In this document: positions 2,235 to 33,094 of the stretch, piece by piece
How the letters are laid out: every line of letters starts with the position of its first letter
Numbering within the stretch: the first letter of the stretch is position 1
Virus record (IMG/VR): IMGVR_UViG_3300029338_000016
Source of the DNA: a virus
Length of the DNA: 33,094 bases
Reading direction: 5' to 3' (one strand)
Notes under the pieces: model-generated
The model's database searches: none
What the model saw: the letters and a program-made list of their open reading frames with translations, nothing else
What the model was told of the DNA's origin: nothing
Translations under genes and position numbers: made by a program

Positions 2235-2696
2235 TTATGTTATCTCTTCCCACTTCGTCGAATTGACGCGCGGGGAATAGACGGAAGATTTGAAGTGCTG
2301 GGCGACGCATACCCACTTCTTCCCGTTGTGCGTTACCTTTGTTCCCTCCGTGATTACTTCGCCGTCCGGAAGGTCAGCCCATGCGCCAATCTGCTCTTCG
2401 GTCGGTGTGCGCGTCCATTTGTCCGGATTTGAAGCAGGGGATTTTCCACGGCTGTAATGCGTTGCCGTGTAGCTCACGCCGTCAAGCGTTACCACGTCGC
2501 CCGTGATATAGCTTTTCTTCTCGTTCCACTCTTCGCCTTGCTCCGGAAGGGAAACAAGGTTATTGCGGATACTCGAAATAATGCTTTCTTCGGTTTCGGC
2601 GCGGGCGGCTTCAACCTCCGCCATGATCGAAGCGCGCAAGGCTTCAAGCTCTGCCGCGCCGATCTGCTTTTCGCTCTTCTTGTGTGTTACGCTCAT
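2235..2696 (-). CDS. Fibre-associated protein with two CBM5/12-like carbohydrate-binding repeats
   Basis: YITGDVVTLDGVSYTATHY...PDKW and GTKVTHNGKKWVCVAQHF...STKW repeats. An ATGA overlap joins it to the upstream gene. Confidence 0.6.
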   Translation of the reverse strand: MSVTHKKSEKQIGAAELEALRASIMAEVEAARAETEESIISSIRNNLVSLPEQGEEWNEKKSYITGDVVTLDGVSYTATHYSRGKSPASNPDKWTRTPTEEQIGAWADLPDGEVITEGTKVTHNGKKWVCVAQHFKSSVYSPRVNSTKWEEIT

Positions 2697-4432
2697 TCAA
2701 AATTCCCCCCGATCCCCGATACCCAGCAAGCGGTCAGCGCGTCGCCGCGCTGGACGGTTACGCGGATATTCATTCCGTACTGTGCCGCCGTGTTGATCTT
2801 ATTTGTGAAAACGTGTGCAACGCCTTGAACAACCGCGTTCGTGCAATCCTCCCAAACGGGGGAAGCGTCAAACGGATTGTTCGTCGCTTCAACCTTGAAC
2901 GTGCCGCCCGCCGGAATATCTCGCGTTACCTTGATATTCGCGCGTGTCGGCTGGCTGTTGGCTTCCAGCGGCGCTGAAAGCGTGATAACGAAGCCCGCAA
3001 TCGACTTCGTGAACGTCAGCGTCCGGACGGCGCTATTTCCTGCGCTGTCGGTCGCCGTAATTGTGATCGTGTGCTTTGCGTTCGTAAGCGCCGTGAAGGT
3101 ATTTCCGGAAACGGAAAGCGTCTGCGTCGCGCCCAGCGTGATCGCGTTCTTCGTCGCGATTGTCTTTCCGTCGATCTTTTCAACAACGTTCACCGTGTCG
3201 CCGTCCGGATCGGTTACGCTGTATTGATAGGTGAAATCGGCGCGCTTGATCCCAAGATCGGCATTACTGCCGGAAATCACGGGCGGCTGGTTATGGATTA
3301 CGGCAATATCTCCGCTTGTGGTGTATGCGGAATAATTGCCGTAGCTGTCCTTTGCGCGGACGCGGTATTTTAACGTGTTCCACGCGGTCGATACCGCTTC
3401 CGTGAACGTCCTGCTTGCGGACGCTTGAACCTGTGTCCACGCGCCGCTGTTGTATGAGCGCTCGAAACAATAGGTCAGCGCGTCGCCGTCCGGATCGGTC
3501 GCCGCCGCGCAAGAAATGTTGATGTTCTGCCCGCTGTAACACGTTGCTGGCGCGGTAATGCTGGGCGGCGCGGAAGGCGCGGAATTGTAGATTACCGTAT
3601 AATTTCCGTCGCTGTTCGGGCTGTCAGATACCAAGATAGAAGATTTAAGATTACAAAGCGGGCGAACGCCATTAGTGCCGTCGTACGCGCTGTAGTAGTT
3701 CAAAGAGCCGTCCGAACCGACGCTGCGGACGTTGCGGGCGTTCGACGAACTAGGCGTCCGAAGCCACCAATACCAGCCCTTTGACGTGCTGAAACTGCTG
3801 TTCGTGTATCCGTCGGCGTTGTTCACGCATTGCGCCGTAGGATAAGCAACGCGGGAAGCGTCGTTGCTGAATAGCGCAAGAAGCGATCCTTCCGCGATAT
3901 TGTTTTCATTCGCAAGCCCCACTTCGGTGGTGGACGCAAGAAACATTTTCGCCTTGAAGGTTTCGTAACTGCCGCCGTCGGTCGAAGATTTAACAACGGT
4001 CAGCGTTGTTTCCATAAGCTCCGCAACAAACTTCGGATCAAGCATTGCAAGGAAGCCCGCCCACGAAGTGTACGGATTATACGTTACGTGCGTGTTCTTC
4101 GTCGTCGGCGCTTGATCCGCGCTGTGCTTTGCGCTGTACCATGCGCCCGCCGTCGCGTTGCTATTCAGCCATTGCAGAAGGTTTGAATAGATATGTCGGT
4201 TATTGCCGTAATTCTTGCGGTCGTTGTTGCTGTTGCTCGGTTCTTTCGCGTCGGAAGCCATGTTCTGAATGATCTTTTCCGTAATCAGCGTTACGGAATT
4301 CGACGGGTAGCCGCTGTGGTTCTTGTCGGCGATCTTGAAAACGATCTTTGATCCGAAGCGCGATTGATACGCCGAAAGAACCGGAACTTCAATCTTCGCG
4401 CCCACCGACAAACTGCCTAATGTTTTTGACAT
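2693..4432 (-). CDS. DGR target protein 1: fibre or receptor-binding-like protein. The N-terminal C-type-lectin-like domain carries VR1 (aa 226-259), followed by about 320 aa of Ig/FN3-like repeats.
   Basis: GWYWWLRTP...GVRPLCNLKS resembles the ligand-binding fold typical of DGR targets. VR1 matches the TR. The C-terminal region contains TDPDGD-type repeat domains. Confidence 0.85.
   Translation of the reverse strand: MSKTLGSLSVGAKIEVPVLSAYQSRFGSKIVFKIADKNHSGYPSNSVTLITEKIIQNMASDAKEPSNSNNDRKNYGNNRHIYSNLLQWLNSNATAGAWYSAKHSADQAPTTKNTHVTYNPYTSWAGFLAMLDPKFVAELMETTLTVVKSSTDGGSYETFKAKMFLASTTEVGLANENNIAEGSLLALFSNDASRVAYPTAQCVNNADGYTNSSFSTSKGWYWWLRTPSSSNARNVRSVGSDGSLNYYSAYDGTNGVRPLCNLKSSILVSDSPNSDGNYTVIYNSAPSAPPSITAPATCYSGQNINISCAAATDPDGDALTYCFERSYNSGAWTQVQASASRTFTEAVSTAWNTLKYRVRAKDSYGNYSAYTTSGDIAVIHNQPPVISGSNADLGIKRADFTYQYSVTDPDGDTVNVVEKIDGKTIATKNAITLGATQTLSVSGNTFTALTNAKHTITITATDSAGNSAVRTLTFTKSIAGFVITLSAPLEANSQPTRANIKVTRDIPAGGTFKVEATNNPFDASPVWEDCTNAVVQGVAHVFTNKINTAAQYGMNIRVTVQRGDALTACWVSGIGGNFE
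3656..3757 (-). repeat. DGR variable region VR1 (102 nt)
   Basis: Aligns without gaps to TR 5643-5744 with 11 differences. Ten are at TR adenines on the coding strand and one is C->T. Confidence 0.9.
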
Positions 4433-5472
4433 TGTGCCGCCTCCTTTGATTTCATTAAGCTGTTGTAATACTGATCCGTCCGCCGGATCAAGTGATAGCT
4501 GTTTCCCTTTTCGGCGTGTCCTCTCCAGCTTTGATAGGATTGTTCAACGGTCTTTGCGTCGATCCGTCCCGCCGCGTGAAGGGCGGCTAATTTCTTCAAC
4601 TTCCGCTTCATATTGTTCTTGCTCCTGCGGCGCACCTTGCGGATCACCGCGCCGCTTTCGGTCAAGTATGTATGAAAGCCCAAGAAATCAACGCCGTGTT
4701 TCAAGGGAAAGATATTCGTTTTCGCATTCAGCGAAAGCCCGCGCGCCTGTACGAACGCTTCAATCTGCTTCCGGCACTCCTGCAAATATGCTTTGTCGTG
4801 ATGGATCAAAAAGAAGTCGTCCATATAGCGCCCGTAATATTTGATACCCAGCTTTTCCTTTACGAAGTGATCCAGCCCGTCAAGGTAGAGAAGGGCGAAA
4901 AGTTGTGAAGTTTGATTGCCGATCGGTATTCCGACGTTGCCTTCGGTGCTGTCGATGATAAGATCAATCAGCCACAAAACGTCCGGATCGGTTATCTTCT
5001 CGCGGATTAAGGTTTTCAAAACGTCGTGCCGGATCGAATAGAAATACTTTGAAATATCGCCTTTCAGTATCCAGCCGTCAATTCCGTTCTTCCTGTAAAA
5101 CCTCCGCATGAACTCTTGAAGCCTGTCTAACCCGTAATGCGTACCTTTCCCCACCTGCGACGCGTAGTTATCGCGAATGAACGATCGTGTCAAAATCGGT
5201 TCAAGCACGTTATCGCAAAGCGAATGTTGAACAACCTTGTCTTTGTAGCTGTTCGACATAACCACGCGGCGCTTCGGCTCGTATACCTCGAACGTGTTAT
5301 ACGGGGACATGGTATAGCGCTTCGTTCTGATCTGCGCGCTTAATAGGTTCAGCGCTTCAAGAAGATTAACTTCAAACTTTGCCGCCGCTCCTTTCCACCT
5401 CTTGCCTTGCCGCGCCTTTCGGTAGGCATTGTATAGGCTTTCAAAACTGTGTATCTTTTCAAAGTCTGTCAT
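4417..5472 (-). CDS. DGR reverse transcriptase
   Basis: IGNQTSQ motif (the I/LGxxxSQ hallmark of DGR RTs) and YMDD. Start chosen at MTDFEKIH (ATG at 5472, gagga RBS). The longer ORF to 5583 covers the TR-RT spacer. Confidence 0.92.
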   Translation of the reverse strand: MTDFEKIHSFESLYNAYRKARQGKRWKGAAAKFEVNLLEALNLLSAQIRTKRYTMSPYNTFEVYEPKRRVVMSNSYKDKVVQHSLCDNVLEPILTRSFIRDNYASQVGKGTHYGLDRLQEFMRRFYRKNGIDGWILKGDISKYFYSIRHDVLKTLIREKITDPDVLWLIDLIIDSTEGNVGIPIGNQTSQLFALLYLDGLDHFVKEKLGIKYYGRYMDDFFLIHHDKAYLQECRKQIEAFVQARGLSLNAKTNIFPLKHGVDFLGFHTYLTESGAVIRKVRRRSKNNMKRKLKKLAALHAAGRIDAKTVEQSYQSWRGHAEKGNSYHLIRRTDQYYNSLMKSKEAAQCQKH

Positions 5473-5642
5473 AATAAAAAATCCTCGCTGTTTATAACCT
5501 TTGCCAGCCGCCGGAAGGCGGTATGCTCCGGTATCGGCGATCCTGTATTCGTCCCCGCCGTGGATAGCGGCGACGGGATACACCTTCCTTTGATGGTGGT
5601 ATTCTGCTTTCGGCTGTGCCTACTCGTTCACATAGTCCACCG

Positions 5643-5744
5643 AAGCGGGCGAACGCCATTGTTGCCGTTGTACGCGTTGTTGTTGTTCAAAGAGCCGTCC
5701 GAATTGACGTTGCGGACGTTGTTGGCGTTCGACGAATTAGGCGT
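5643..5744 (-). repeat. DGR template repeat (TR)
   Basis: On the coding strand it reads TPNSSNANNVRNVNSDGSLNNNNAYNGNNGVRPL, with 13 AAY codons and 29 adenines. It is invariant relative to two VR copies that differ almost only at these A positions. Confidence 0.9.
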
Positions 5745-5768
5745 ATCAAGATGTACCCCGAACGTTTT

Positions 5769-6174
5769 TCAAGCTCTCGTTTTGTCCCGCTTCTTCCACG
5801 CGGTCGTCATGTACTTCACTTCAAGCGCAAGTTTTGACCAATATTCGCAACTGCTCATAGAAATAAAGCCCATTTCCTGCGAAAGCTCTATGAAAAAATA
5901 GAAGCTCCTTGCAATAGGTCAGCGCCTTTGCTTGTAGCTTCTGCCGTTGTCTGTATTCCTGCGCGTCCCGAAGGTCTAATTCGTTCGCTTCAAGGACGCA
6001 TTCGTAAATGTCCACCGCTTTATCCTGTATCCTGTTTACAAGCGTGAAGCGGTATTTCTTCGGGTAGCGCTCCGTCGAATTCGTGATCGTGAAGGTGTGC
6101 TTTACAAGGTCTTTCGCTTTCACAATCACGTTGAATTCCGTCGGTTCTTTCCGCTCCCGCTCCGGTCTTTGCAT
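5769..6174 (-). CDS. avd: Avd-like accessory variability determinant (four-helix-bundle family), interrupted by a +1 frame change at a T6 run (A6 on the plus strand, 5893-5898)
   Basis: Frame 0 (5821-6174) gives VIVKAKDLVKHTFTITNSTERYPKKYRFTLVNRI...CKELLFF and then an atypical tail. The +1 frame continues IELSQEMGFISMSSCEYWSKLALEVKYMTTAWKKRDKTRA to a stop at 5769, which resembles an Avd C-terminus. Confidence 0.7.
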
Positions 6175-6406
6175 AAATGCACCGTCCTTTCCGCATTCGC
6201 TCGATTATCGCGGTATCGTCGGCGCACCCGTCGAAATCGAAGCCCGCGTCGGTAACGGTCAGCGTTGCCGCGTTCCCTGTAACCGTTGTTCCTGTGATCT
6301 GCAATACCTCCGCACCGCAAGCCGCGCATGGCGGGGAAAGCTCCGCAAAGATGTTTCCGATCACGCACGATAATTCCGCCACCGTGCAAGCGTACCGCGT
6401 CAGCAT
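6020..6406 (-). CDS. Hypothetical protein. The ORF overlaps the avd start by about 150 nt in another frame, so its true extent is uncertain.
   Basis: ATG at 6406 with a gagga RBS. No stop occurs before 6020. No family was recognised. Confidence 0.35.
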   Translation of the reverse strand: MLTRYACTVAELSCVIGNIFAELSPPCAACGAEVLQITGTTVTGNAATLTVTDAGFDFDGCADDTAIIERMRKGRCIYAKTGAGAERTDGIQRDCESERPCKAHLHDHEFDGALPEEIPLHACKQDTG

Positions 6407-7306: not shown

Positions 7307-8428
7307 TTATTTCGTAATCTGCCGAATTTGTGTCAGAAGCGCGGGCAAGCTCTCGCCGAAGGTAATATCTATTTCTTCGCCGCTGGTTTCGTAGGTTTCC
7401 GCAATCTCCGTTATGCGAACGTCAATGCGGACGTTCCAGCGCTTATTGATACACGTTACCCGATCGCCTAAATCGTAATCCGTGCCGTACTTCAAATTCG
7501 CGTTCGTGTTGATCTTCGATCCGAAAGCAAGCGTTTCCGCGTATTGCTCCAGCTCTTCAACGCCGCGCGCGGAAAGAAGCGCTAAATACTGCGCCGTTGT
7601 AAGCGTTACGGTCTGCCCGCTCTCGTTTTCGTATTCCTGCACGATGTCCGTTGCATTGATGAAAACTTCGTCGCGGGAAAGCCCCGCCGCGCTTCCTCCG
7701 ACTTCCGCAACCTTCCGCGCAACGCCTTCTTTTTCCTCTCCGCCGATGTAAGCCGTTGTTTTAAGGTTTTCAATACTGTTCGTGTATTCCTGTTCCACGA
7801 TGTTGTCAAATTCCTGTGAAAAGATACAAGGCGCGTTTCCTGCGGCATTTCCCGCCGTAAGGTCGCGCCCTTTGTAAACGGAAAAGGTGTGCTTTCCCGT
7901 CCGTGCGTTTGTTGTAACCCGAATACCCAGCTTCGCCGCCTTCGCCGCCGTTTCCGCCGCAAGCTGGGCGTTCACGTACTGTTCGGAAGTATAGTCGATC
8001 TGCCCGCTTCCGGTGTCTGCGTCGGTCGTGGATATGCTGAAATTCGGGATATTGCGCGCCGCTCCTGCGTTCGTGCAAGTCTGCTTCACAATGGCGTATA
8101 GAATGTTCTGTGTCGTGTCCTTCGTGATGATCTGCGTTGTCAAAATGCGCTTGCCGATCCACGAAAGCAGGAACTTTCCTTGAACCTCTATTTCCTCCAT
8201 GCCCTGTGAATTTTTCGTAATGTGAATATAGCGGATTTCCGCCGCTTCTTTCCCGCCGCGCTTGATGATGATATTTTCCTTCACCAGCAAGCGGGCGTGA
8301 TCCTCCGTGAAGGGAACAAGCAACTTGAATTCGCCGCAACTCCAATAACGCCGCGTCCATATCAAGGACGAAATCTTTTCGACGATCCCTTGAAGTGTCA
8401 TATCACGGCTATAAACGTATAATTCCAC
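7307..8428 (-). CDS. Siphovirus Gp37-like tail-tip protein (Tal position)
   Basis: GTG start giving (M)ELYVYSRDMTLQGIVEKISSLIWTRRYWSCGEFKL, the typical N-terminus of this family. GGGGGTG RBS. The ORF-track extension to 8551 overlaps Dit. Confidence 0.7.
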   Translation of the reverse strand: MELYVYSRDMTLQGIVEKISSLIWTRRYWSCGEFKLLVPFTEDHARLLVKENIIIKRGGKEAAEIRYIHITKNSQGMEEIEVQGKFLLSWIGKRILTTQIITKDTTQNILYAIVKQTCTNAGAARNIPNFSISTTDADTGSGQIDYTSEQYVNAQLAAETAAKAAKLGIRVTTNARTGKHTFSVYKGRDLTAGNAAGNAPCIFSQEFDNIVEQEYTNSIENLKTTAYIGGEEKEGVARKVAEVGGSAAGLSRDEVFINATDIVQEYENESGQTVTLTTAQYLALLSARGVEELEQYAETLAFGSKINTNANLKYGTDYDLGDRVTCINKRWNVRIDVRITEIAETYETSGEEIDITFGESLPALLTQIRQITK

Positions 8429-8432
8429 CGCG

Positions 8433-9320
8433 CTACACCCCCAAATACAAGTTATTGTGATAGATCGAAACTTCGAGATTTTCGGCGTTCGCGTCCGCTG
8501 AATAACGGAAGAGATTGTCGCCCACGGCGATCTGCAAATACGAACTATCAACGTCGAGATAGCGGAACGCGTCAGTAATTACGCCGCCACGGTTCAGCTT
8601 CACGGCTTTTTCACCGTAGCCCGTGGAAACGGTTAAAACGTCGCCCGCTACAAGCGAAATATTCAGCTTGATAAACTCCCGTGTATCGACGTTCAGCAAT
8701 ACGGGATTTGTAACCGCGCCGATCGCGCGGAACTCGATCCGGATACCGCTTTTCACGTCGCCGGAATTGTAGACGTTCACAATCAGCGACGGCTGGCGAT
8801 AGCCGATTTCCCACCCGTCGTAAAGCTCCAGCCCGTCCGGAACTGGAAATTCAAAGCCGCCGATCCACGTTGCTATGTCCTCGCGTGTTTCCGTTTCCTC
8901 TCTCCAAAAAGGATTAAGGCACGAAAGATTGACCGTGAATTGCTCGAAGATCGGCTTCCGTTTGAAGATCGGCGCGTCGTCGATTTTGCACCCGATCACC
9001 CGCCGGAAGTCGCCGAAAACATACGTCAACGTTGCTTCGTACTGCGGATTTAATATGCGGTTCAGTTTCCGGCGTAGGTTCTGCGCCGCTTGCTTGTCCC
9101 GCTCCTTGATGTAACCCACGATGTCAATATCGCGGCTTTCGATCCGATACCCCAAGTACGTGTCGCCGTCCTGCCCCATGCTGTTTGTACTATAAATAGC
9201 GTTCCGCACGTCGGAAAGTCCGGTAACGTCCTTGAAGTTTACGTGATACGAAGAAGCGGGGGAAAACTCTATGCTTTCCCCGCGCTCGTTCGTGTAAATC
9301 AATTTTTCTTGCGTCCTCAT
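8433..9320 (-). CDS. Distal tail protein (Dit, siphovirus tail component family)
   Basis: Lies immediately after the tape measure gene. N-terminus LIYTNERGESIEFS...YHVNFKDVTGL is typical of the family. Confidence 0.8.
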   Translation of the reverse strand: MRTQEKLIYTNERGESIEFSPASSYHVNFKDVTGLSDVRNAIYSTNSMGQDGDTYLGYRIESRDIDIVGYIKERDKQAAQNLRRKLNRILNPQYEATLTYVFGDFRRVIGCKIDDAPIFKRKPIFEQFTVNLSCLNPFWREETETREDIATWIGGFEFPVPDGLELYDGWEIGYRQPSLIVNVYNSGDVKSGIRIEFRAIGAVTNPVLLNVDTREFIKLNISLVAGDVLTVSTGYGEKAVKLNRGGVITDAFRYLDVDSSYLQIAVGDNLFRYSADANAENLEVSIYHNNLYLGV

Positions 9321-12300
9321 GCCATAACCTCCCGCGCGATCTGCCGGAACTGCCGCGCCGCCTGTCTTTGCTGTTCGGCGTAGCTCGTTTCGTTTGCATA
9401 GATGTTTTGCACGACTTCAACGGAAGGCGTACTGCCGCCGCGCTTGTCGCGCCCCTCTTCGGAACGGAATTCGGGAACGGCGTTCGATGTTTCACGGCGG
9501 ATCGTGCTTTCAACGTCGCGCATTTCGCGGGCGAAGCCCTCGCCCAAGCCCTGCGCCATGTAAGAGCCGATACGGGCAAAAACCTTCGACGGGGAATTGA
9601 TTTGCATTTCTGCTTCAACTGCCGCCACGATCTCTCTCATCATTGACCGCACTTTGCTTTCCAGCCAGCCGGACATATTTTGAAAGCCCCGCCAAATGCC
9701 GCGCACCATCTCTTCGCCCGCCGCCGTGAACTCCGATACGTAAGAGCGAAGGGCGGTAATAATGGGCTGAATGATTTGTGCAACCTTGCCCGTGATCTGC
9801 GGGATACCCGCGATCATGCCTTGCGCTATGCTCTTGTCGATGTTCGTTCCTTCGGTTACGAACTTTTGATGTTGCGCCGTGAATGCGGTAATAATGCTTT
9901 GTACGATCTGCGGGATTTTCTGCGTGATCTGCACGATCGCCGTTACCATTCCGGAAGCTATGTTCTTGTCGAAGTCCTGTCCGGCTTGATTGAAACGCTG
10001 TGCTTGCGCCGTCAATCCGGTAATAACCCGCTCGACGATCGCGTTCACCGCTCCGGACAATCCTTCAATGTTCGCAATAATACCGTTGTTCACGGCGTTT
10101 ACTGCTTCCGCCGCCGTCAGCGCGCCCGCGCCGCCCATTGCGGCGGTCATATCGCCTTCAACGCCGCCCATGTTGTCGGTGAAGCCTACGCCCACGCCGT
10201 CCGCCATATTGCCGCCGATTTCGGCGAATACCGTTGACGGGGAATGAATGCCGAAGAAGTCCTTGATACCCGAAACAAGGGACGAAGCCCAGCCGGATAC
10301 CTTTTCCCACAACCACGAAGCCGCGCCGCTGATACCTTCCCACAAGCCGTGAAGAAGGTTTGCGCCCGCGTTTATCATTTCGCCGCCCAGCGACGCGAAC
10401 GCTTGCACAATGCCGGAAACAATCTGCGGAACTGCCTTCGCAATTTCAACTATGATCGTCGGCAAATTCTGAATGAGCGCCACAAAAAGCTGAACGCCCG
10501 CCATAATGATTTGGTCGATATTCCCGATCAGCGCGTTTACAATACTGCTGATTATCTGCGGGATCGCTTGAACGATCGTCACGATGATTTCCGGCAACGC
10601 CTGTATGAGCGCGACAAGAAGATCAATTCCCGCTTGAATGATAAGCGGTATATTCTCCGTAAGTGCCGTTATAATCCCGTCTATGATCTGTGGGATCGCT
10701 TCTACGATTGCGGCTATAATTTCCGGAAGGGCGGTAACAAGCGCCGTCAGAAGGTCGATACCCGCTTGAATGATCTGCGGGATCGCCGATAGCAACCCGT
10801 CGATAAGGCTTGAAATTACTTGCGGAAGCGCGGCAACAATAACCGGTATCGCGTTTATAATTCCTTGCGCCAGCCCTGTTATAAGCTGTAATGCTGCGTC
10901 GATCAGCAACGGGATATTGTCGATCAGCGTTTGCACGATTTTCATTATAACGTCAACGGCGGTCGGAACAAGCGTCGGAAGGGCTTTTGCAATTCCCGTC
11001 GCAAGCTCCAAAATTAACTGCGCCGCCGCTTCAACAAGCAACGGCAAGTTTTCAATCAGCGTGTCAACAACCGTCATAACCGCCTCAACGATAACGGGGA
11101 TCAACTCCGGAATAAGCGATAGAAGCGTTGACAATATCGACTTGAATAGATCGACAACCGCCGTTAATATCGTCGGAAGCAGTTTGCCGACATTCTCCGC
11201 AACGCCGTTTAATAGCGTCGGAAGTGCCTTCACGATGTTTTGCACAACTGGCGTTATATTGTCGATTACGCATCCTAAATATTCCGCTACGTCGTCAACC
11301 AGCTTTTGAATATCCGCGTCCGCGTTGCCAAGCCCCGTAATAAGGTTTGACCATGCGGCGGAAAGCGAATTCATAGAGCCTTGAATTGTTTTCGTCGCTT
11401 CCTCCGCCGTTGTTCCTGTCACGCCCATTTGATCCTGTATTTCGTGAATAGCAAGGATCATTTGGTCGAAGGAAACATTATCAAGGCTTGTGATCTTCTC
11501 TTCAAGAATGCCGCTGTCATTGATAAGCCGGATCATTTCGGATTGCGTACCGCCGTAACCCAGCTTTAAGTTATCCAGCATTGTGTAATTCTGCTTCGCG
11601 AAGCCTTGATACGCGTTTTGAATGGCGGAAATGTCTGTCCCCATCTTGTTTGCGTTGTCCGACATATCCGTAATAGCAAGATCGGCAAGTTTCGCCGCCT
11701 TTTCAGTATCGCCGCCCAAGCCGGATACAAGCGCGGCGGAAAAGCTCGTTACGGTTTCCATGTAGTCGTTTGCCGAAAGTCCCGCCGTTCGGAAGGCGTT
11801 GTCAGCGTTTGAAAGCGTCGTTTCCTGCGCGGAAATAAGTTTGTCATATTCTGCGCGGGCTTCGTCAACGCTCTTCCCGACGCTTTTTGCGTATTCCTCC
11901 AGCGATTTTCCGCCCGCTCCGAATAGTGTTTCAACGCCGCCGACAAGCTGTTCATAATCTCCAAAGCTTTCAACAACCGCCGTTCCCAGCTTGTATGCAA
12001 CCGCGCCAGCGGCGGCGGCAATCGTAGCAAGCCCCACGGCGAATGCTTTTGCGCCTGTCGCAACTGCGCTTCCGACGCTCTCCCAGCTTATTTTTGATTT
12101 CTTCAAGCTGTCGTCGATCTTGTCAATTTGGTTCTTTGTGCTTTTCATTTCTGCGGTACATTCGTTCAAACTCCGCTTCAATTCAAGCGCTTCGTTGGAA
12201 TTCTCGCCGTATTCAACCGTTGCCGATCTGTACGCCTTTTCCAACGCTTCAACCTTTTTTTGCTGTTCTGCGAATACCTGTTTCAGAACTTCTTGTTTTG

Positions 12301-12805
12301 CTTTCAGCGCTTGCGCGCTATCTCCGTTGTTCTCATACTCCGCCGAAACAACCTTCATTTCGGAAGCAAGAAGCCCTAATTGTTTATCCACGTTCGCGGC
12401 TTCTGCGGCGAATTGCTCCGACGCTGGCGTGGTCTTGTTCAAACTCGCGGTTATTCCGTCAATCTCCGCTTGTGTTTTAACCATTTCCGCCTTCGTGTTG
12501 TTTAGGTTTGTTTGCATTTTCTGAAAAGCCGTGCTTGTCGGATCAACGCCCGCCGCGCGCATTTTCTCCAATGCCGCTTCCGCCGCCGCCGCTTTTTTCG
12601 CCTGTTCGTCAAGCGACTTTTGCAAAACCTCCTGCTTCTTTGTCAGCGCTTCCGTACTGTCCGCATTTCCGGCGAATTCCGCCGTAATCAGTTTCATTTC
12701 TGAACCGATTTCGCGTAGGGAAGAATTTATTGCTTTGCAAGCGTTTCTATACTCTCTTTCGCCAGTAAGGCCGATTGATGTTTCGATCTGCTCTTCTTTC
12801 GCCAT
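9317..12805 (-). CDS. Tape measure protein (1162 aa)
   Basis: Size, position after the G/GT chaperone, and N-terminal coiled coil. Internal tandem ~44-aa repeats (ALPEIIAAIVEAIPQIIDGIITAL...) at about 10400-11230. Confidence 0.92.
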   Translation of the reverse strand: MAKEEQIETSIGLTGEREYRNACKAINSSLREIGSEMKLITAEFAGNADSTEALTKKQEVLQKSLDEQAKKAAAAEAALEKMRAAGVDPTSTAFQKMQTNLNNTKAEMVKTQAEIDGITASLNKTTPASEQFAAEAANVDKQLGLLASEMKVVSAEYENNGDSAQALKAKQEVLKQVFAEQQKKVEALEKAYRSATVEYGENSNEALELKRSLNECTAEMKSTKNQIDKIDDSLKKSKISWESVGSAVATGAKAFAVGLATIAAAAGAVAYKLGTAVVESFGDYEQLVGGVETLFGAGGKSLEEYAKSVGKSVDEARAEYDKLISAQETTLSNADNAFRTAGLSANDYMETVTSFSAALVSGLGGDTEKAAKLADLAITDMSDNANKMGTDISAIQNAYQGFAKQNYTMLDNLKLGYGGTQSEMIRLINDSGILEEKITSLDNVSFDQMILAIHEIQDQMGVTGTTAEEATKTIQGSMNSLSAAWSNLITGLGNADADIQKLVDDVAEYLGCVIDNITPVVQNIVKALPTLLNGVAENVGKLLPTILTAVVDLFKSILSTLLSLIPELIPVIVEAVMTVVDTLIENLPLLVEAAAQLILELATGIAKALPTLVPTAVDVIMKIVQTLIDNIPLLIDAALQLITGLAQGIINAIPVIVAALPQVISSLIDGLLSAIPQIIQAGIDLLTALVTALPEIIAAIVEAIPQIIDGIITALTENIPLIIQAGIDLLVALIQALPEIIVTIVQAIPQIISSIVNALIGNIDQIIMAGVQLFVALIQNLPTIIVEIAKAVPQIVSGIVQAFASLGGEMINAGANLLHGLWEGISGAASWLWEKVSGWASSLVSGIKDFFGIHSPSTVFAEIGGNMADGVGVGFTDNMGGVEGDMTAAMGGAGALTAAEAVNAVNNGIIANIEGLSGAVNAIVERVITGLTAQAQRFNQAGQDFDKNIASGMVTAIVQITQKIPQIVQSIITAFTAQHQKFVTEGTNIDKSIAQGMIAGIPQITGKVAQIIQPIITALRSYVSEFTAAGEEMVRGIWRGFQNMSGWLESKVRSMMREIVAAVEAEMQINSPSKVFARIGSYMAQGLGEGFAREMRDVESTIRRETSNAVPEFRSEEGRDKRGGSTPSVEVVQNIYANETSYAEQQRQAARQFRQIAREVMA

Positions 12806-13015
12806 TTATATCCCCCCTAACACGTCGTCGATGTCAACTTCCTTCGGATCGGGCTTAAAACGATCCGGATTGAATTCACGATGGATTTTGAAAAGCGTCA
12901 AAATTTTATACGGTGTCATGCGCCATACTTCGGCTTCGCTCCACCGCAAAAGCGTTACGCCGATATAAAGAAGGCGGGCAAGGTCTATTATTCCTTGCCC
13001 GCCGTCGCGTTTTTT
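12806..13015 (-). CDS. gpT-like extension, reached by -1 frameshifting from the chaperone gene (G-T fusion product)
   Basis: The -1 frame after A_AAA_AAC is open to TAA at 12806. It reads KKRDGGQGIIDLARLLYIGVTLLRWSEAEVWRMTPYKILTLFKIHREFNPDRFKPDPKEVDIDDVLGGI and has no start codon of its own. Confidence 0.75.
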   Translation of the reverse strand, partial: KKRDGGQGIIDLARLLYIGVTLLRWSEAEVWRMTPYKILTLFKIHREFNPDRFKPDPKEVDIDDVLGGI

Positions 13016-13371
13016 CCGTCGTCCTCTTCGTCGTCCTCTTCGTCCCTTTCGGGCGGTTCGGTCGTTCCGGTATTGCCAAGTGTGAACGACTTAAAGATCG
13101 CCGTTTTCACTTCGGCAAAATTGCCCGTATGAATGAGCTTGCCCACCTGTTTTTCGGTAAGCGGTTCTTCGTCGTCCTCTGCACCCTCGTTCAAAAGCAC
13201 GGTCAAAAGCCAGCGAAGATTTTTAATGCTGTCCTTTCCGGAAAGCACGGTATCAAGGCGATCAAAGCCGCCGAATTTATCCTGCATTTCGTCGATCGCG
13301 TTCAAACTGAAAAGAAGGTGTCTTTCCTTGTCCAGTACGATCGGGAAGCGTCCGTCTTTAATTGCACTCAT
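12988..13371 (-). CDS. Tail assembly chaperone (gpG-like)
   Basis: Position between the major tail and tape measure genes. Acidic C-terminus. A slippery site lies near the 3' end. Confidence 0.8.
   Translation of the reverse strand: MSAIKDGRFPIVLDKERHLLFSLNAIDEMQDKFGGFDRLDTVLSGKDSIKNLRWLLTVLLNEGAEDDEEPLTEKQVGKLIHTGNFAEVKTAIFKSFTLGNTGTTEPPERDEEDDEEDDGKNATAGKE
13009..13015 (-). promoter_or_regulatory. Programmed -1 ribosomal frameshift heptamer A_AAA_AAC
   Basis: Frame-0 codons are GGA AAA AAC, which fits the X_XXY_YYZ pattern. This is the conserved G/GT arrangement of tailed phages. Confidence 0.75.
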
Positions 13372-13429
13372 AACAGAATAAGGCGGGAAGCCTTTTCAAG
13401 CTCCCCGCCGTTCCTCCTTTCAATTTCGA

Positions 13430-13990
13430 TCAGCCGCCCGCGTTATTCGGTTCGCGAACGGTAGTAAACCAAGCCGCCGCCACGCTGTTCGTAGGCTCTG
13501 CGACGTGTTCAGCCTTCCACAAGCCGTCGGAACGCTTGATGAACTGCCCGACGATCTCCGGCGTGGTAAATTCGATACTGTCGCCCTTCGTGGTATAGTT
13601 TTCGTCCGGAACGGCAAACTTGACTTTGTAAAGCCAAATGTACTTGTACGTTCCGCCCGCTTTCTTCGCGCGGAAGCCGATTGCGAAATACGGCGCTTCG
13701 TCTGTGTCTGCACCGTAGACAACCTTGTCCGCGTCCTGCTTCTGCCCAAGCAGGGCGGCAAAGTCAGCCGGAAGAAGATCGTTCACGTTCAGCGTAATTT
13801 CTCCGGAAACGAATTCTTTTACAACTTCGTCCGCGCCGTCGTCGGCATAAAGGATCGCTTCGGCTACTTCCACGGAAAGCTCCGCCGAAATCGCCTTCGC
13901 CATACGTACTGGCGTTCCATATTCCTCCGCGCCGTCCGTGCCGATCGTAATAGGCGCGCGATAGAGATCGCGCAATCCGATTGTTGCCAT
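13430..13990 (-). CDS. Major tail protein
   Basis: MATIGLRDLYRAPITIG... N-terminus is typical of phi13-type major tail proteins. ggaggt RBS. Position. Confidence 0.85.
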   Translation of the reverse strand: MATIGLRDLYRAPITIGTDGAEEYGTPVRMAKAISAELSVEVAEAILYADDGADEVVKEFVSGEITLNVNDLLPADFAALLGQKQDADKVVYGADTDEAPYFAIGFRAKKAGGTYKYIWLYKVKFAVPDENYTTKGDSIEFTTPEIVGQFIKRSDGLWKAEHVAEPTNSVAAAWFTTVREPNNAGG

Positions 13991-24747: not shown

Positions 24748-24880
24748 TGTTCCCGCCGCCCCTCCGAAGCGCTCTGAAAAGCACGTTCAAAACGATGTAG
24801 ACGATCACAACGGAAGCGGCGACGCAAGCAACGCCGCAAAGCATATAAAAGGCGTTCACCATGAATTGATACATTGTCAT
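24734..24880 (-). CDS. Small (48 aa) single-TM protein
   Basis: MTMYQFMVNAFYMLCGVACVAASVVIVYIVLNVLFRALRRGGGNNGRY. An ATGA overlap joins it to the upstream gene, and its 3' end overlaps the next start. Confidence 0.5.
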   Translation of the reverse strand: MTMYQFMVNAFYMLCGVACVAASVVIVYIVLNVLFRALRRGGGNNGRY

Positions 24881-25515
24881 TCGTCAGCCCTCCCGAAAAC
24901 CTCTTCCGCGTCGATGTCCCACGCGGCGGCAATGTGCTTCATCATATCGACGGCTTCGGCGCGCTTCTTCTGTTCCTCTGCGTTCTCGCCGTTTAAGTAC
25001 GATACCAAGATTTCAGATTTGAGATTGCAAAGCGGGCGAACGCCATTGCCGCCGCCGAACGCAGGGCTGTAGTTCAAAGAGCCGTCCGAATAGACGTTAC
25101 GGACGAAAGAATTTATCGGGCTGTCCGGTGTAGCCGTCCACCACCAACGATCCGGAAGCGCCGGAGTGTTGCCGCGCAAAAGGCGGTATTCCTCGCAAGT
25201 GATAAGCCCGATCCGGACGCGATCGCCGCCGTAATTCTTCAAGCCGTCGTCGGCGGTCAAGTCGATGTTGAAATACTCGAACATTTCTTCCGGCGCGCCC
25301 GCCTTAATCAGACGGCGCAAGAATTCGCCGTTCAGATAGGCGCGAAGGGAAGAAGCGGCAAAGTCGTTCTTGTTCCCTTCATCGAAGGCGCGTTCCTCGA
25401 CGCAATCGGAAGTAATGCACTTCACCCAATCCGCGCCCGTCTGAATGACCGTCCAAGCGATCCCGCCCATTGTGAATTCCTGTTTCGGCTCGAAGCCGTG
25501 TTTGTTCTCTTTCAT
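24877..25515 (-). CDS. DGR target protein 2: small (212 aa) C-type-lectin-like protein carrying VR2 (aa 138-162); early-region, non-structural context
   Basis: RWWWTATP...VRNVYSDGSLNYSPAFGGGNGVRPLCNLKSEILVS is paralogous to the VR domain of target 1. Start at MKENKHGF (ATG at 25515) behind the shared RBS motif. The ORF-track extension to 25638 overlaps the MazG-like gene. Confidence 0.8.
   Translation of the reverse strand: MKENKHGFEPKQEFTMGGIAWTVIQTGADWVKCITSDCVEERAFDEGNKNDFAASSLRAYLNGEFLRRLIKAGAPEEMFEYFNIDLTADDGLKNYGGDRVRIGLITCEEYRLLRGNTPALPDRWWWTATPDSPINSFVRNVYSDGSLNYSPAFGGGNGVRPLCNLKSEILVSYLNGENAEEQKKRAEAVDMMKHIAAAWDIDAEEVFGRADE
25030..25104 (-). repeat. DGR variable region VR2 (75 nt, matches the 3' three-quarters of the TR)
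   Basis: Gap-free alignment to TR 5643-5717 with 12 differences, 10 at TR adenines and 2 C->T. Homology to the TR is lost upstream of GTCCGTAACGTC. Confidence 0.85.
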
Positions 25516-25534
25516 ATTGAATAGCTCCTTTCCT

Positions 25535-25867
25535 TTAACACTTCTTGCCGCCGTGCCGATACGGGCGGCTTTTGTTGTATTCGTGCTTCTGTGAGATCGC
25601 CGCGTCAATGTCGATCCCTGCGTATCCGCAATAATCAAGAACGCGAATAATCACGTCCGCAAGCTCCGTCGGGATACCTTCGGGCTTGCCGCTGTCGCTG
25701 AAATAGATTTCTGTTGCGCCGTGTCCGTTGCGGTATTCCTCCAGCGCTTCGGATACCTCCGAATGAATGAGCGCTAAAACCTCCGGAAATCCGCGTTCTT
25801 CGTCCCACCAGCCGTGGGCGACGGCGTTTTCGTGAATTTCCTTCGCAACCTCGTTAATACCTGTCAT
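25535..25867 (-). CDS. MazG-like nucleotide pyrophosphohydrolase
   Basis: EIHENAVAHGWWDE...LIHSEVSEALEE...ELADVIIRVLDY motifs. Confidence 0.8.
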   Translation of the reverse strand: MTGINEVAKEIHENAVAHGWWDEERGFPEVLALIHSEVSEALEEYRNGHGATEIYFSDSGKPEGIPTELADVIIRVLDYCGYAGIDIDAAISQKHEYNKSRPYRHGGKKC

Positions 25868-29599: not shown

Positions 29600-30637
29600 T
29601 CAAGCGGCTTCGGCGACGTATCTTTCAAAGAGCGATCCGGACGTTTCAAAGCCTAAAATCTCGCGCGGGTAATTGTTGATCCACGTTTCGACGCGCTGAA
29701 TATATGCGGCGGTTACTTTCCGGAAGTCTGTTCCTTTCGGCAAGAACCGCCGTATCATTTTGTTTATGTTCTCGTTCGTGCCGCGTTCGTATGCGCTGTA
29801 CGGGTGGCAATAGTAAACCTTCGTGCGCTTCCGGTCTTTGCCGTAGATGGATTTTTCAATTCCGGCGCAATCCATAAATTCCGATCCGTTGTCAAACGTA
29901 ATGCTTTTGAATATCTGTGAAAACTTCTTCCCGAAGCGGCGTTCTAATTTGTTCAGCGCCGCCACGACGCTGGCGGCGGTCTGATCCGGCATTTTGATAA
30001 TAATTTCGTTCCGCGTCAAGCGCTCCGAAAGAACGAACAAGGTTTCCTTCGTCCGCTTCTTCCCGCATACGCAATCGCCTTCCCAATGTCCGAAGGTCTG
30101 CCGATCGTTGATTTCCTGCGGGCGTTCTTCTATGCTTTCGCCTTGCGGCGCGCGGGCGGCTTTCTTCCGCTCCACCTTGTCATACTTCCGCTTTCGCTCT
30201 CCGTGTTCCGGCAAGCTCTCGCGGCTGATCCCGTAGAATATGCCTTTGTCGATGTAATTATAGATCGTCTTTTCGCTGATCTCCGTTTTGAAGGTCAGCC
30301 CCAGCCGCTTGATTTCTCCGACGACGGCGGCGGGGGAATAGCCTTCTTCGCCGATCTTCTTTTCGATGAAGGCGGATAATTCGTAATCGTTGCCGATCTT
30401 CAATTCGCCGCCTTTGGCTTTTAGGTTCTCTTCATAGCGCTGTTGCGCGATCTCCGGCGAATAGCGTTCTTCGGTCGTCAAGTCGGAATTCAAATGCGTG
30501 TAGCGTCCGCGCTTCAACTCCCTGTATATCGTTGTGTTGTGGACGTGCAGACGGTCGGCAATCGCGCACGGCTTTAAGCCCTCTTTCAATCCCTTTTCGA
30601 TCTTTAGGCGATCCGTCCATGTTAAGTGTTTGTGCAT
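29600..30637 (-). CDS. IS30-family DDE transposase
   Basis: N-terminal HTH, then GHWEGD...FDNGSEF...ERGTNENINKMIRRFLPKG (DDE triad context). ATG at 30637 after GGAGGA. Confidence 0.9.
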   Translation of the reverse strand: MHKHLTWTDRLKIEKGLKEGLKPCAIADRLHVHNTTIYRELKRGRYTHLNSDLTTEERYSPEIAQQRYEENLKAKGGELKIGNDYELSAFIEKKIGEEGYSPAAVVGEIKRLGLTFKTEISEKTIYNYIDKGIFYGISRESLPEHGERKRKYDKVERKKAARAPQGESIEERPQEINDRQTFGHWEGDCVCGKKRTKETLFVLSERLTRNEIIIKMPDQTAASVVAALNKLERRFGKKFSQIFKSITFDNGSEFMDCAGIEKSIYGKDRKRTKVYYCHPYSAYERGTNENINKMIRRFLPKGTDFRKVTAAYIQRVETWINNYPREILGFETSGSLFERYVAEAA

Positions 30638-30662
30638 TCTTTCTTCCTCCGGCTTCCGAATA

Positions 30663-30692
30663 TGACAAAAGGGCGGCATTTCTGCCGCCCTT
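30663..30692 (-). terminator. Intrinsic terminator after hicB
   Basis: 10-bp stem aagggcggca / tgccgccctt with a 4-nt loop, followed on the minus strand by TTGTCATATT. Confidence 0.65.
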
Positions 30693-32898: not shown

Positions 32899-33094
32899 TG
32901 TTTGTATCCTCGCTTTCTGTTATGTCGATTTTTTCTTTTTTCTTGATCCTGCCGATAATTACTTCGGCAATACGCTTCATCATCATTGCGCCACATTCAA
33001 TCACGACGGCGCGGAAATACCATTCGATCAGAACGGTTTGTTCCTGCCGCGTGATAAGGAATGAAACGTACTGTGCGATGATGAAAGCCGCCGT
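32888..33094 (-). CDS. 3' part of the same junction-spanning two-TM protein (its 5' end runs off the window end)
   Basis: Same reading frame through the 123-bp overlap. The TGA stop at 32888-32890 overlaps the start of the next gene by 11 nt. Confidence 0.6.
   Translation of the reverse strand, partial: TAAFIIAQYVSFLITRQEQTVLIEWYFRAVVIECGAMMMKRIAEVIIGRIKKKEKIDITESEDTNNDY
32972..33094. repeat. Second copy of the 123-bp terminal overlap
   Basis: Identical to 1-123. Confidence 0.95.

Follow-up and report, generated by a model that had tools for sequence, protein, structure and literature searches.

The window analysed here, IMG/VR virus record IMGVR_UViG_3300029338_000016 at its full length of 33,094 nucleotides, carries on its minus strand a diversity-generating retroelement (DGR). 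The cassette comprises avd, a template repeat (TR), a spacer, a reverse transcriptase (RT) gene and a target gene directly downstream that contains a variable repeat (VR1). A third, shorter copy of the repeat (VR2) was found inside a small open reading frame (ORF) 19 kb from the cassette (Table 1). An original prediction had proposed a DGR with this core order and the target directly downstream, and the proposal is strongly supported by the affinity of the RT, by the Avd profile and by TR/VR patterns in natural populations. The coordinates of the TR, VR1 and the RT gene were reproduced, as were the 13 AAY codons of the TR, the length of the spacer, the two RT motifs and the 16-nt overlap of the 579-aa target with the RT stop. 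However, the same prediction had called the element complete, and this is contradicted by avd, whose reading frame is disrupted in the window copy (a 117-aa product without about 40 C-terminal residues). We hold with high confidence that the region is the DGR of a temperate siphovirus of human-gut Oscillospiraceae resembling phage nd12 (GenBank OR777946), with two targets and an avd gene that is frameshifted in this genome.

Table 1. Features of the retroelement and its targets, in window positions
Feature	Position	Strand	Remarks
avd homology region	5769..6174	minus	406 nt; +1 frameshift
avd ORF as encoded	5821..6174	minus	117 aa, the last 23 out of frame
Poly-T tract in avd	5893..5898	minus	T6 here, T5 in the functional allele; frameshift site
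TR	5643..5744	minus	102 nt, non-coding; 29 adenines, 13 AAY codons
Spacer between TR and RT	5473..5642	minus	170 nt, conserved structured RNA
DGR reverse transcriptase	4417..5472	minus	351 aa; motifs IGNQTSQ and YMDD
Target 1, 'tentaclin'	2693..4432	minus	579 aa; N-terminal DUF6273, then Ig-like domains
VR1	3656..3757	minus	target-1 residues 226-259; direct-repeat partner of TR
VR1 3′ flank, candidate initiation of mutagenic homing (IMH) site	3614..3655	minus	preceded by GC-rich GGCGTTCGCCCGCTT
Target 2	24877..25515	minus	212-aa stand-alone DUF6273 protein in the replication/early module
VR2	25030..25105	minus	76 nt; target-2 residues 137-162; partner of TR 5718-5643

The ATG of the RT gene lies behind a GAGGA Shine-Dalgarno sequence. 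Among solved structures the closest to this enzyme is bRT of a Bordetella phage (8ub7, E = 2.3e-43, residues 5-336), the alignment pairing IPIGNQTSQLF with IPIGSLTSQLF, whereas the best group II intron RT was matched at 6e-17. The RT also matches PHROG 1423 (E = 1e-134). Its scores against the NCBIfam group II, retron, Drt and Abi models were far under their cutoffs (group II intron model TIGR04416, 117 bits with the cutoff at 300; retron St85, 39.5 with the cutoff at 235). A group II intron or retron identity, the outcome that the original prediction had named as fatal to it, was ruled out by the affinity to bRT and by these sub-cutoff scores.

Template and variable repeats

Within the window, TR and VR1 form a 102-nt direct repeat of 88% identity. 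They differ at 12 positions, 11 of them TR adenines and one a C>T change (TR 5661/VR1 3674). The original prediction had counted 11 differences with ten at adenines, one too few on both counts, while the nine codon changes it listed were correct. VR2 differs from the corresponding part of the TR at 12 of 76 positions (10 at adenines, 2 C>T), bringing the mismatches that fall on TR adenines to 21/24 for the two repeats. Such a bias is improbable by chance for VR1 (P for at least 11/12 at A = 8.7e-6), for VR2 (6.1e-5) and for the two jointly (1.4e-9). The theoretical protein repertoire amounts to as many as ~3e16 variants for VR1 and ~6e11 for VR2.

The same pattern was examined in natural relatives. 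An RT-based scan of IMG/VR yielded 80 loci, from which a close VR1 set of 35 genomes (RT at least 98% identical, both repeats complete) and a more distant set of 28 genomes were drawn. The 35 close genomes carry 7 TR variants as against 34 distinct VR1s. When each VR1 was compared with the TR of its own genome, 482/496 mismatches fell on TR adenines (A>G 231, A>T 210, A>C 41), and VR1 was variable at 28/29 TR-adenine positions. The distant set behaved alike (372/382 at adenines), giving 854/878 (97%) over both sets pooled. VR2 was unique in 42/42 close genomes, with its variation concentrated at the 20 TR-adenine positions between 5711 and 5659. Moreover, where a TR carried a non-adenine variant, this was mirrored in the VR1 of the same genome in 225/233 cases. 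One pair of genomes with different avd alleles (T6 and T5, see below) is separated by a single nucleotide polymorphism and the T indel over 6.3 kb, yet some 15 VR1 positions differ between them. Information passes from TR to VR at all positions, and adenines alone are scrambled. Experiments aside, no evidence that mutagenic retrohoming is ongoing could be stronger than this pattern. The adenine-directed retrohoming put forward in the original prediction is strongly supported by both the window bias and the population patterns, and its suggested check against population data has been answered with public relatives: the mismatches are adenine-biased, the TR is stable and VR1 is hypervariable.

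The three C>T differences (TR 5661 for VR1, TR 5712 and 5676 for VR2) had been put down tentatively to drift of the TR after the last homing events. This is refuted, as the window TR has at each site the base found in 35/35 close TRs and the T is private to the window VRs (1/35 for VR1 and 1/42 for each VR2 site). The changes are therefore specific to the VRs. All three are synonymous third-position changes (ACC>ACT, CGC>CGT, CCC>CCT). Private substitutions of the window lineage number 1 in 4310 flanking columns against 3 in 129 non-adenine VR positions (Poisson P = 4e-6), a density about 100 times higher in the VRs. The best explanation is that they are rare non-adenine errors of retrohoming, arising through either RT misincorporation or deamination of a template C.

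Two of the three private C>T changes (window 3674-3675 and 25063-25065, minus strand) lie directly 3′ of an A>C change (AAC>ACT and AAC>CCT). A>C is the rarest adenine outcome, and its adjacency to C>T hints that both bases changed in one coupled dinucleotide error as the cDNA was made.

Between TR and RT gene, the spacer is highly conserved and has a covarying RNA fold, with covarying helices at 5641-5637/5599-5595, 5574-5567/5558-5551 and 5532-5530/5499-5497. RNAalifold analysis of 34 distinct spacer sequences kept 32/37 consensus pairs in all 34, compensatory changes were seen at 5640/5596, 5619/5613, 5573/5552, 5567/5558 and 5532/5497, and the single-sequence fold had a z-score of -2.2. 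By analogy with the TR-Sp RNA of Bordetella phage BPP-1, this spacer is probably a scaffold for RT-Avd binding and self-priming. At their 3′ ends the TR, VR1 and VR2 all close with the same GC-rich 15 nt, GGCGTTCGCCCGCTT. Over the 42 nt that follow, VR1 and VR2 share 27/42 positions, as against 12/42 and 6/42 with the flank of the TR. This contrast between VR and TR flanks resembles that between IMH and IMH*. Conserved residues (LCNLKS.ILVS) are, however, encoded in the same VR flanks, which leaves protein constraint inseparable from a homing signal.

We infer the mechanism of the element from established DGR biology (BPP-1); the mode of priming, the role of the IMH and the binding of ligands by the target proteins are likewise inferences. 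On that model a transcript running from the end of avd through the TR into the structured spacer would be bound by an RT-Avd complex, which would self-prime the synthesis of cDNA from the TR 3′ end, the RT misreading template adenines. The cDNA would replace the homologous VR, guided by the shared GC-rich 3′ element and the VR-specific flank. A single TR would in this way rewrite two genes, tentaclin downstream of the RT (VR1) and the DUF6273 protein 19 kb away (VR2).

The poly-T tract of avd

An Avd-like gene had been predicted across the whole avd interval. Avd homology does extend over it, but the interval is not a multiple of three in length and cannot therefore be a single ORF. The frame opened by the ATG at 6174 closes at 5821, and the C-terminal 40 Avd residues (…IELSQEMGFIS…AWKKRDKTRA) are encoded in the +1 frame as far as 5769. 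Removal of one T from the T6 tract gives a 134-aa product, to which the DGR Avd models can be aligned along their whole length: NF033474 DivGenRetAVD (positions 3-104 of 104; E = 5.8e-11, which is below its curated cutoff), Pfam bAvd and PHROG 3206 'Avd protein of DGR' (E = 6e-29). The frameshift removes the fourth helix of Avd. T5 together with an intact 134-aa avd is found in all typed relatives from IMG/VR (~70) and from genome collections (7, two of them cultured isolates) and in nd12.

T6 in the window is most likely a real, recently arisen loss-of-function allele. The exact 117-aa product was found on 23 contigs of independent assemblies in ENA, JGI, NCBI and Logan, made with MEGAHIT (k127, k141) or SPAdes, and the Logan contig of SRR5056834 is identical to the window sequence over 5.4 kb. 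Nine T6 contigs were compared with their nearest T5 relative over 4.5-6.3 kb and contained no further single-base indel; one (L226) has an extra in-frame 3-nt codon indel adjoining VR1 and another (L227) an offsetting pair. T6 occurs on about six haplotypes, some of which differ from T5 genomes by 0.02-0.06% but from one another by more than 1%. These contigs speak against the idea that the cassette is intact and the extra T an artefact of homopolymer sequencing or assembly. Overcalling of T5 as T6 is, besides, atypical of short-read consensus assemblies. What can be said for an artefact is that T5 prevails in the relatives named above, that T6 genomes may be so close to T5 genomes, that the VR patterns of T6 genomes resemble those of active cassettes, and that the commoner T4 allele is itself suspect. 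On balance we consider an artefact unlikely, though it is the strongest of the alternatives.

The T4 allele (94-aa product) is listed for 454 contigs. Ten of these were examined (L231-L240) and four had another -1 homopolymer contraction. In L234 and L238 an A6 run of the target is reduced to A5, in L239 a T6 run ahead of the RT start to T5, and in L231 an A5 run where the target begins to A4. The T4 signal is therefore probably due in part to homopolymer under-calling, and the figure of 454 may be inflated. For the same reason T4 was downgraded as strong evidence of a natural switch. In one T4 contig (L231, Logan ERR4087480_2048) the RT gene has been cleanly deleted between TTATGA and TAATGA microhomologies at 3690-3760 of that locus. 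This is a genuinely decaying cassette, with the RT lost, avd in the T4 state and both TR and VR retained.

A second alternative is that the poly-T tract acts as a reversible on/off switch, or that a +1 slip on UUU-UUU-C yields the exact T5 protein, in which case T6 would throttle the element rather than abolish it. A tRNA-Phe that re-paired in the +1 direction, from UUU to UUC, would give back exactly the 134-aa sequence. On a neighbour-joining tree of 55 flanking sequences the T run switches state at least 16 times, although such tree-based counts are confounded by recombination, and both the several T6 haplotypes and their diverse adenine-only VR1s fit a switch. However, the tract is not kept in deeper avd homologues, which have TTC TTC, TTT CTT or other codons at this place. 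There is accordingly no sign of selection for a slippery run, and a mutational hot spot is favoured over an evolved switch. Runs of five or six T are also short for efficient strand or transcriptional slippage. Minority T-run alleles are rare (0 of ~70 IMG/VR genomes), and no stimulatory element is evident, for example an A-site codon that is rare or a stop. Nothing suggests that a slip would be efficient. A literature search for avd frameshifts in DGRs returned nothing relevant. A switch or slip is improbable, clearly more so than an artefact. If it were true, T5 would be the on state and T4 and T6 off or leaky, and lineages could freeze a successful receptor-binding variant and resume diversification later.

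The idea that the likeness of TR and VR reflects ordinary duplication or gene conversion of paralogous segments, next to an unrelated group II intron or retron enzyme, can be dismissed as having virtually no chance of being right: the group II intron model is the best NCBIfam match to the RT only because that library has no DGR RT model, and its 117 bits fall far under the cutoff, among solved relatives bRT leads by 26 orders of magnitude in E-value, no Rfam family was found at permissive E-values in window 5300-6300 (avd, TR, spacer and RT start), and the 97% adenine restriction over 63 genomes, with concerted non-adenine sites, had already refuted it.

The preferred account is of a genuine DGR with an avd frameshift in this copy. 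The window cassette was clearly active in the recent past, and we lean towards its being disabled now, provided that the additional T is neither a fault of the assembly nor overcome by slippage. Two results weigh against this account. One concerns the present loss of activity: 'frozen' VRs were sought through non-adenine TR/VR1 mismatches, with no clear enrichment (T6 1/5 genomes, T4 5/9, T5 10/40; outliers were due to indels), so that a long-standing freeze is not demonstrated. The other concerns the homing site: unlike in BPP-1, no hairpin or cruciform was detected 3′ of either VR, the DNA there folding no more stably than shuffled sequence (z = +1.1 and +0.6). Such a structure is a feature of BPP-1 and is not universal.

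Target proteins, phage genome and hosts

Target 1 contains Pfam DUF6273 (aa 45-264, E = 7e-34) and Big_13 (aa 402-475), and over its full length it matches PHROG 10993 'Hoc-like head decoration' (E = 3.5e-187). This fits the pattern of the tentaclin family, in which an N-terminal DUF6273/C-lec domain with the VR hairpin precedes Ig-like domains, the last of them a conserved C-terminal one. An AlphaFold2 model of residues 1-290 (window 3562-4432; predicted local distance difference test, pLDDT, 80; predicted template modelling score, pTM, 0.84) places VR1 residues 235-247 in a beta-hairpin. When this model was searched against the PDB with Foldseek, the sole match was to 9qa6, an IgA peptidase of Thomasclavelia ramosa, in its N-terminal DUF6273 domain (E = 6e-13), and a PDB sequence search with the same residues likewise returned nothing beyond the DUF6273 domain of that structure. 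What this domain does in the peptidase is not established in PMC12402451. There was no significant Foldseek match to C-type lectins, Mtd, TvpA or FGE, C-type lectins appearing at insignificant scores, and the C-type lectin (CLec) assignment was therefore not reproduced with this method.

Residues 260-579 of target 1 are almost identical to those of nd12_tgt1, whereas residues 55-165 (window 3940-4270, minus strand), which lie outside the VR, are markedly diverged from nd12. This suggests mosaic recombination within the target gene. The target-1 stop codon is overlapped by the gene of a 153-aa protein with two CBM5/12 modules (window 2235-2696, minus strand), which may be another host-surface binding component.

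Target 2 matches DUF6273 (Pfam E = 8.6e-10; PHROG 9958 E = 5e-44) and is encoded amid Dam methylase and replication-initiator genes. A 110-aa ORF (25535-25867) directly precedes its ATG at 25515 and matched no Pfam family.

Positions 1-123 of the window are repeated exactly at 32972-33094. This 123-nt terminal direct repeat identifies the window as a circularly assembled phage genome of ~32,971 bp. The cassette stands at the end of a siphovirus-type tail module (7307-13990, minus strand), which encodes a major tail protein (PHROG 88), a tail terminator, a 1162-aa tape measure, Dit, a Sipho_Gp37-like protein and a 296-aa structural protein; no tail sheath gene turned up among the ORFs scanned. 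The CBM5/12 protein, a putative holin and an endolysin follow downstream of the cassette. An IS30-like DDE transposase is encoded at 29600-30679 on the minus strand (HTH_38 and rve domains; PHROG 4646, E = 7e-136). It is found at the same place in the window, nd12 and the prophage copies and is conserved in all relatives. It may serve the phage as an integrase of its own and not be an inserted insertion sequence.

Copies ~96% identical to the phage lie inside contigs of two cultured Oscillospiraceae, Hominicoprocola fusiformis CLA-AA-H269 (JAJEPY010000006.1, 68 kb; L165) and strain CM18GR_63 (JAWQDX010000003.1, 332 kb; L162). Both have an intact T5 avd and adenine-only differences between TR and VR1. 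More distant copies were found in Neglectibacter and others, and an intact Avd was also recorded on a 3.98-Mb contig.

Relation to known elements

The two-target DGR of nd12 was described by Baykov et al. 2023 (Int J Mol Sci 24:17324, PMC10743442), who named target 1 'tentaclin' and reported 28 and 20 mutable adenines with occasional non-adenine changes. The region is 95.7% identical at the nucleotide level between nd12 and the window, the TR is identical, the RT is 99% and the 579-aa target 1 91% identical. Both phages share the order avd-TR-RT-target 1 and have a second DUF6273 target elsewhere in the genome. Given these identities and the shared pair of targets, the cassette was already known. 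There are, however, differences. The avd of nd12 is T5 and intact, whereas that of the window is T6 and frameshifted, and nd12_tgt2 has an N-terminal helical extension of ~80 aa that is missing from window target 2 (compare window 25516-25638 with L081 1245-1481). No nd12 prophage was found in that paper, whereas the window type has the copies in cultured Oscillospiraceae described above. The same paper called nd12 a small myovirus on the strength of a tail-sheath annotation.

An avd-TR-RT core corresponds to architecture B1, within the commonest family (B), of Wu et al. 2018 (PMC5758913), which also describes non-adjacent second targets within a prophage. The BPP-1 DGR (mtd-avd-TR-brt), the prototype for the mechanism, shares this core with the window, including a homologous Avd and full-length RT homology with the IGxxTSQ motif. 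In both, AAY codons abound in the TR, TR and VR each end in a GC-rich element beyond which the flanks diverge, and a structured spacer separates TR and RT gene. Unlike in BPP-1, the window target lies downstream of the RT, its VR sits in the N-terminal domain rather than at the C-terminus, and there are two targets, one of them non-adjacent. The target protein is also of another kind, DUF6273 with Ig domains instead of an Mtd trimer, and has no significant sequence or Foldseek match to Mtd. Faecalibacterium prophage DGRs (FP_Mushu, FP_Brigit, FP_Toutatis) share the target family (PHROG 10993, DUF6273), and the FP_Toutatis DUF6273 gene has weak nucleotide matches to the window. The backbones of these prophages are, however, different (4% query coverage at 75% identity).

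As a DGR, the element is nothing new in kind. What is added to the nd12 paper is a poly-T polymorphism in avd, an origin for the C>T changes, a covarying structure in the spacer and hosts in culture. The relatives assembled here provide a much larger natural-population test of TR-to-VR flow for an nd12-type element (~75 genomes for VR1, 42 for VR2), and the non-adenine C>T changes are to be read as VR-specific events and not as TR drift. Those who use the window genome as an example of a 'complete' DGR should know of the frameshift in its avd, a lesion that turns up repeatedly in the wild. Moreover, the occurrence of the prophage in cultivable Oscillospiraceae makes the element experimentally accessible.

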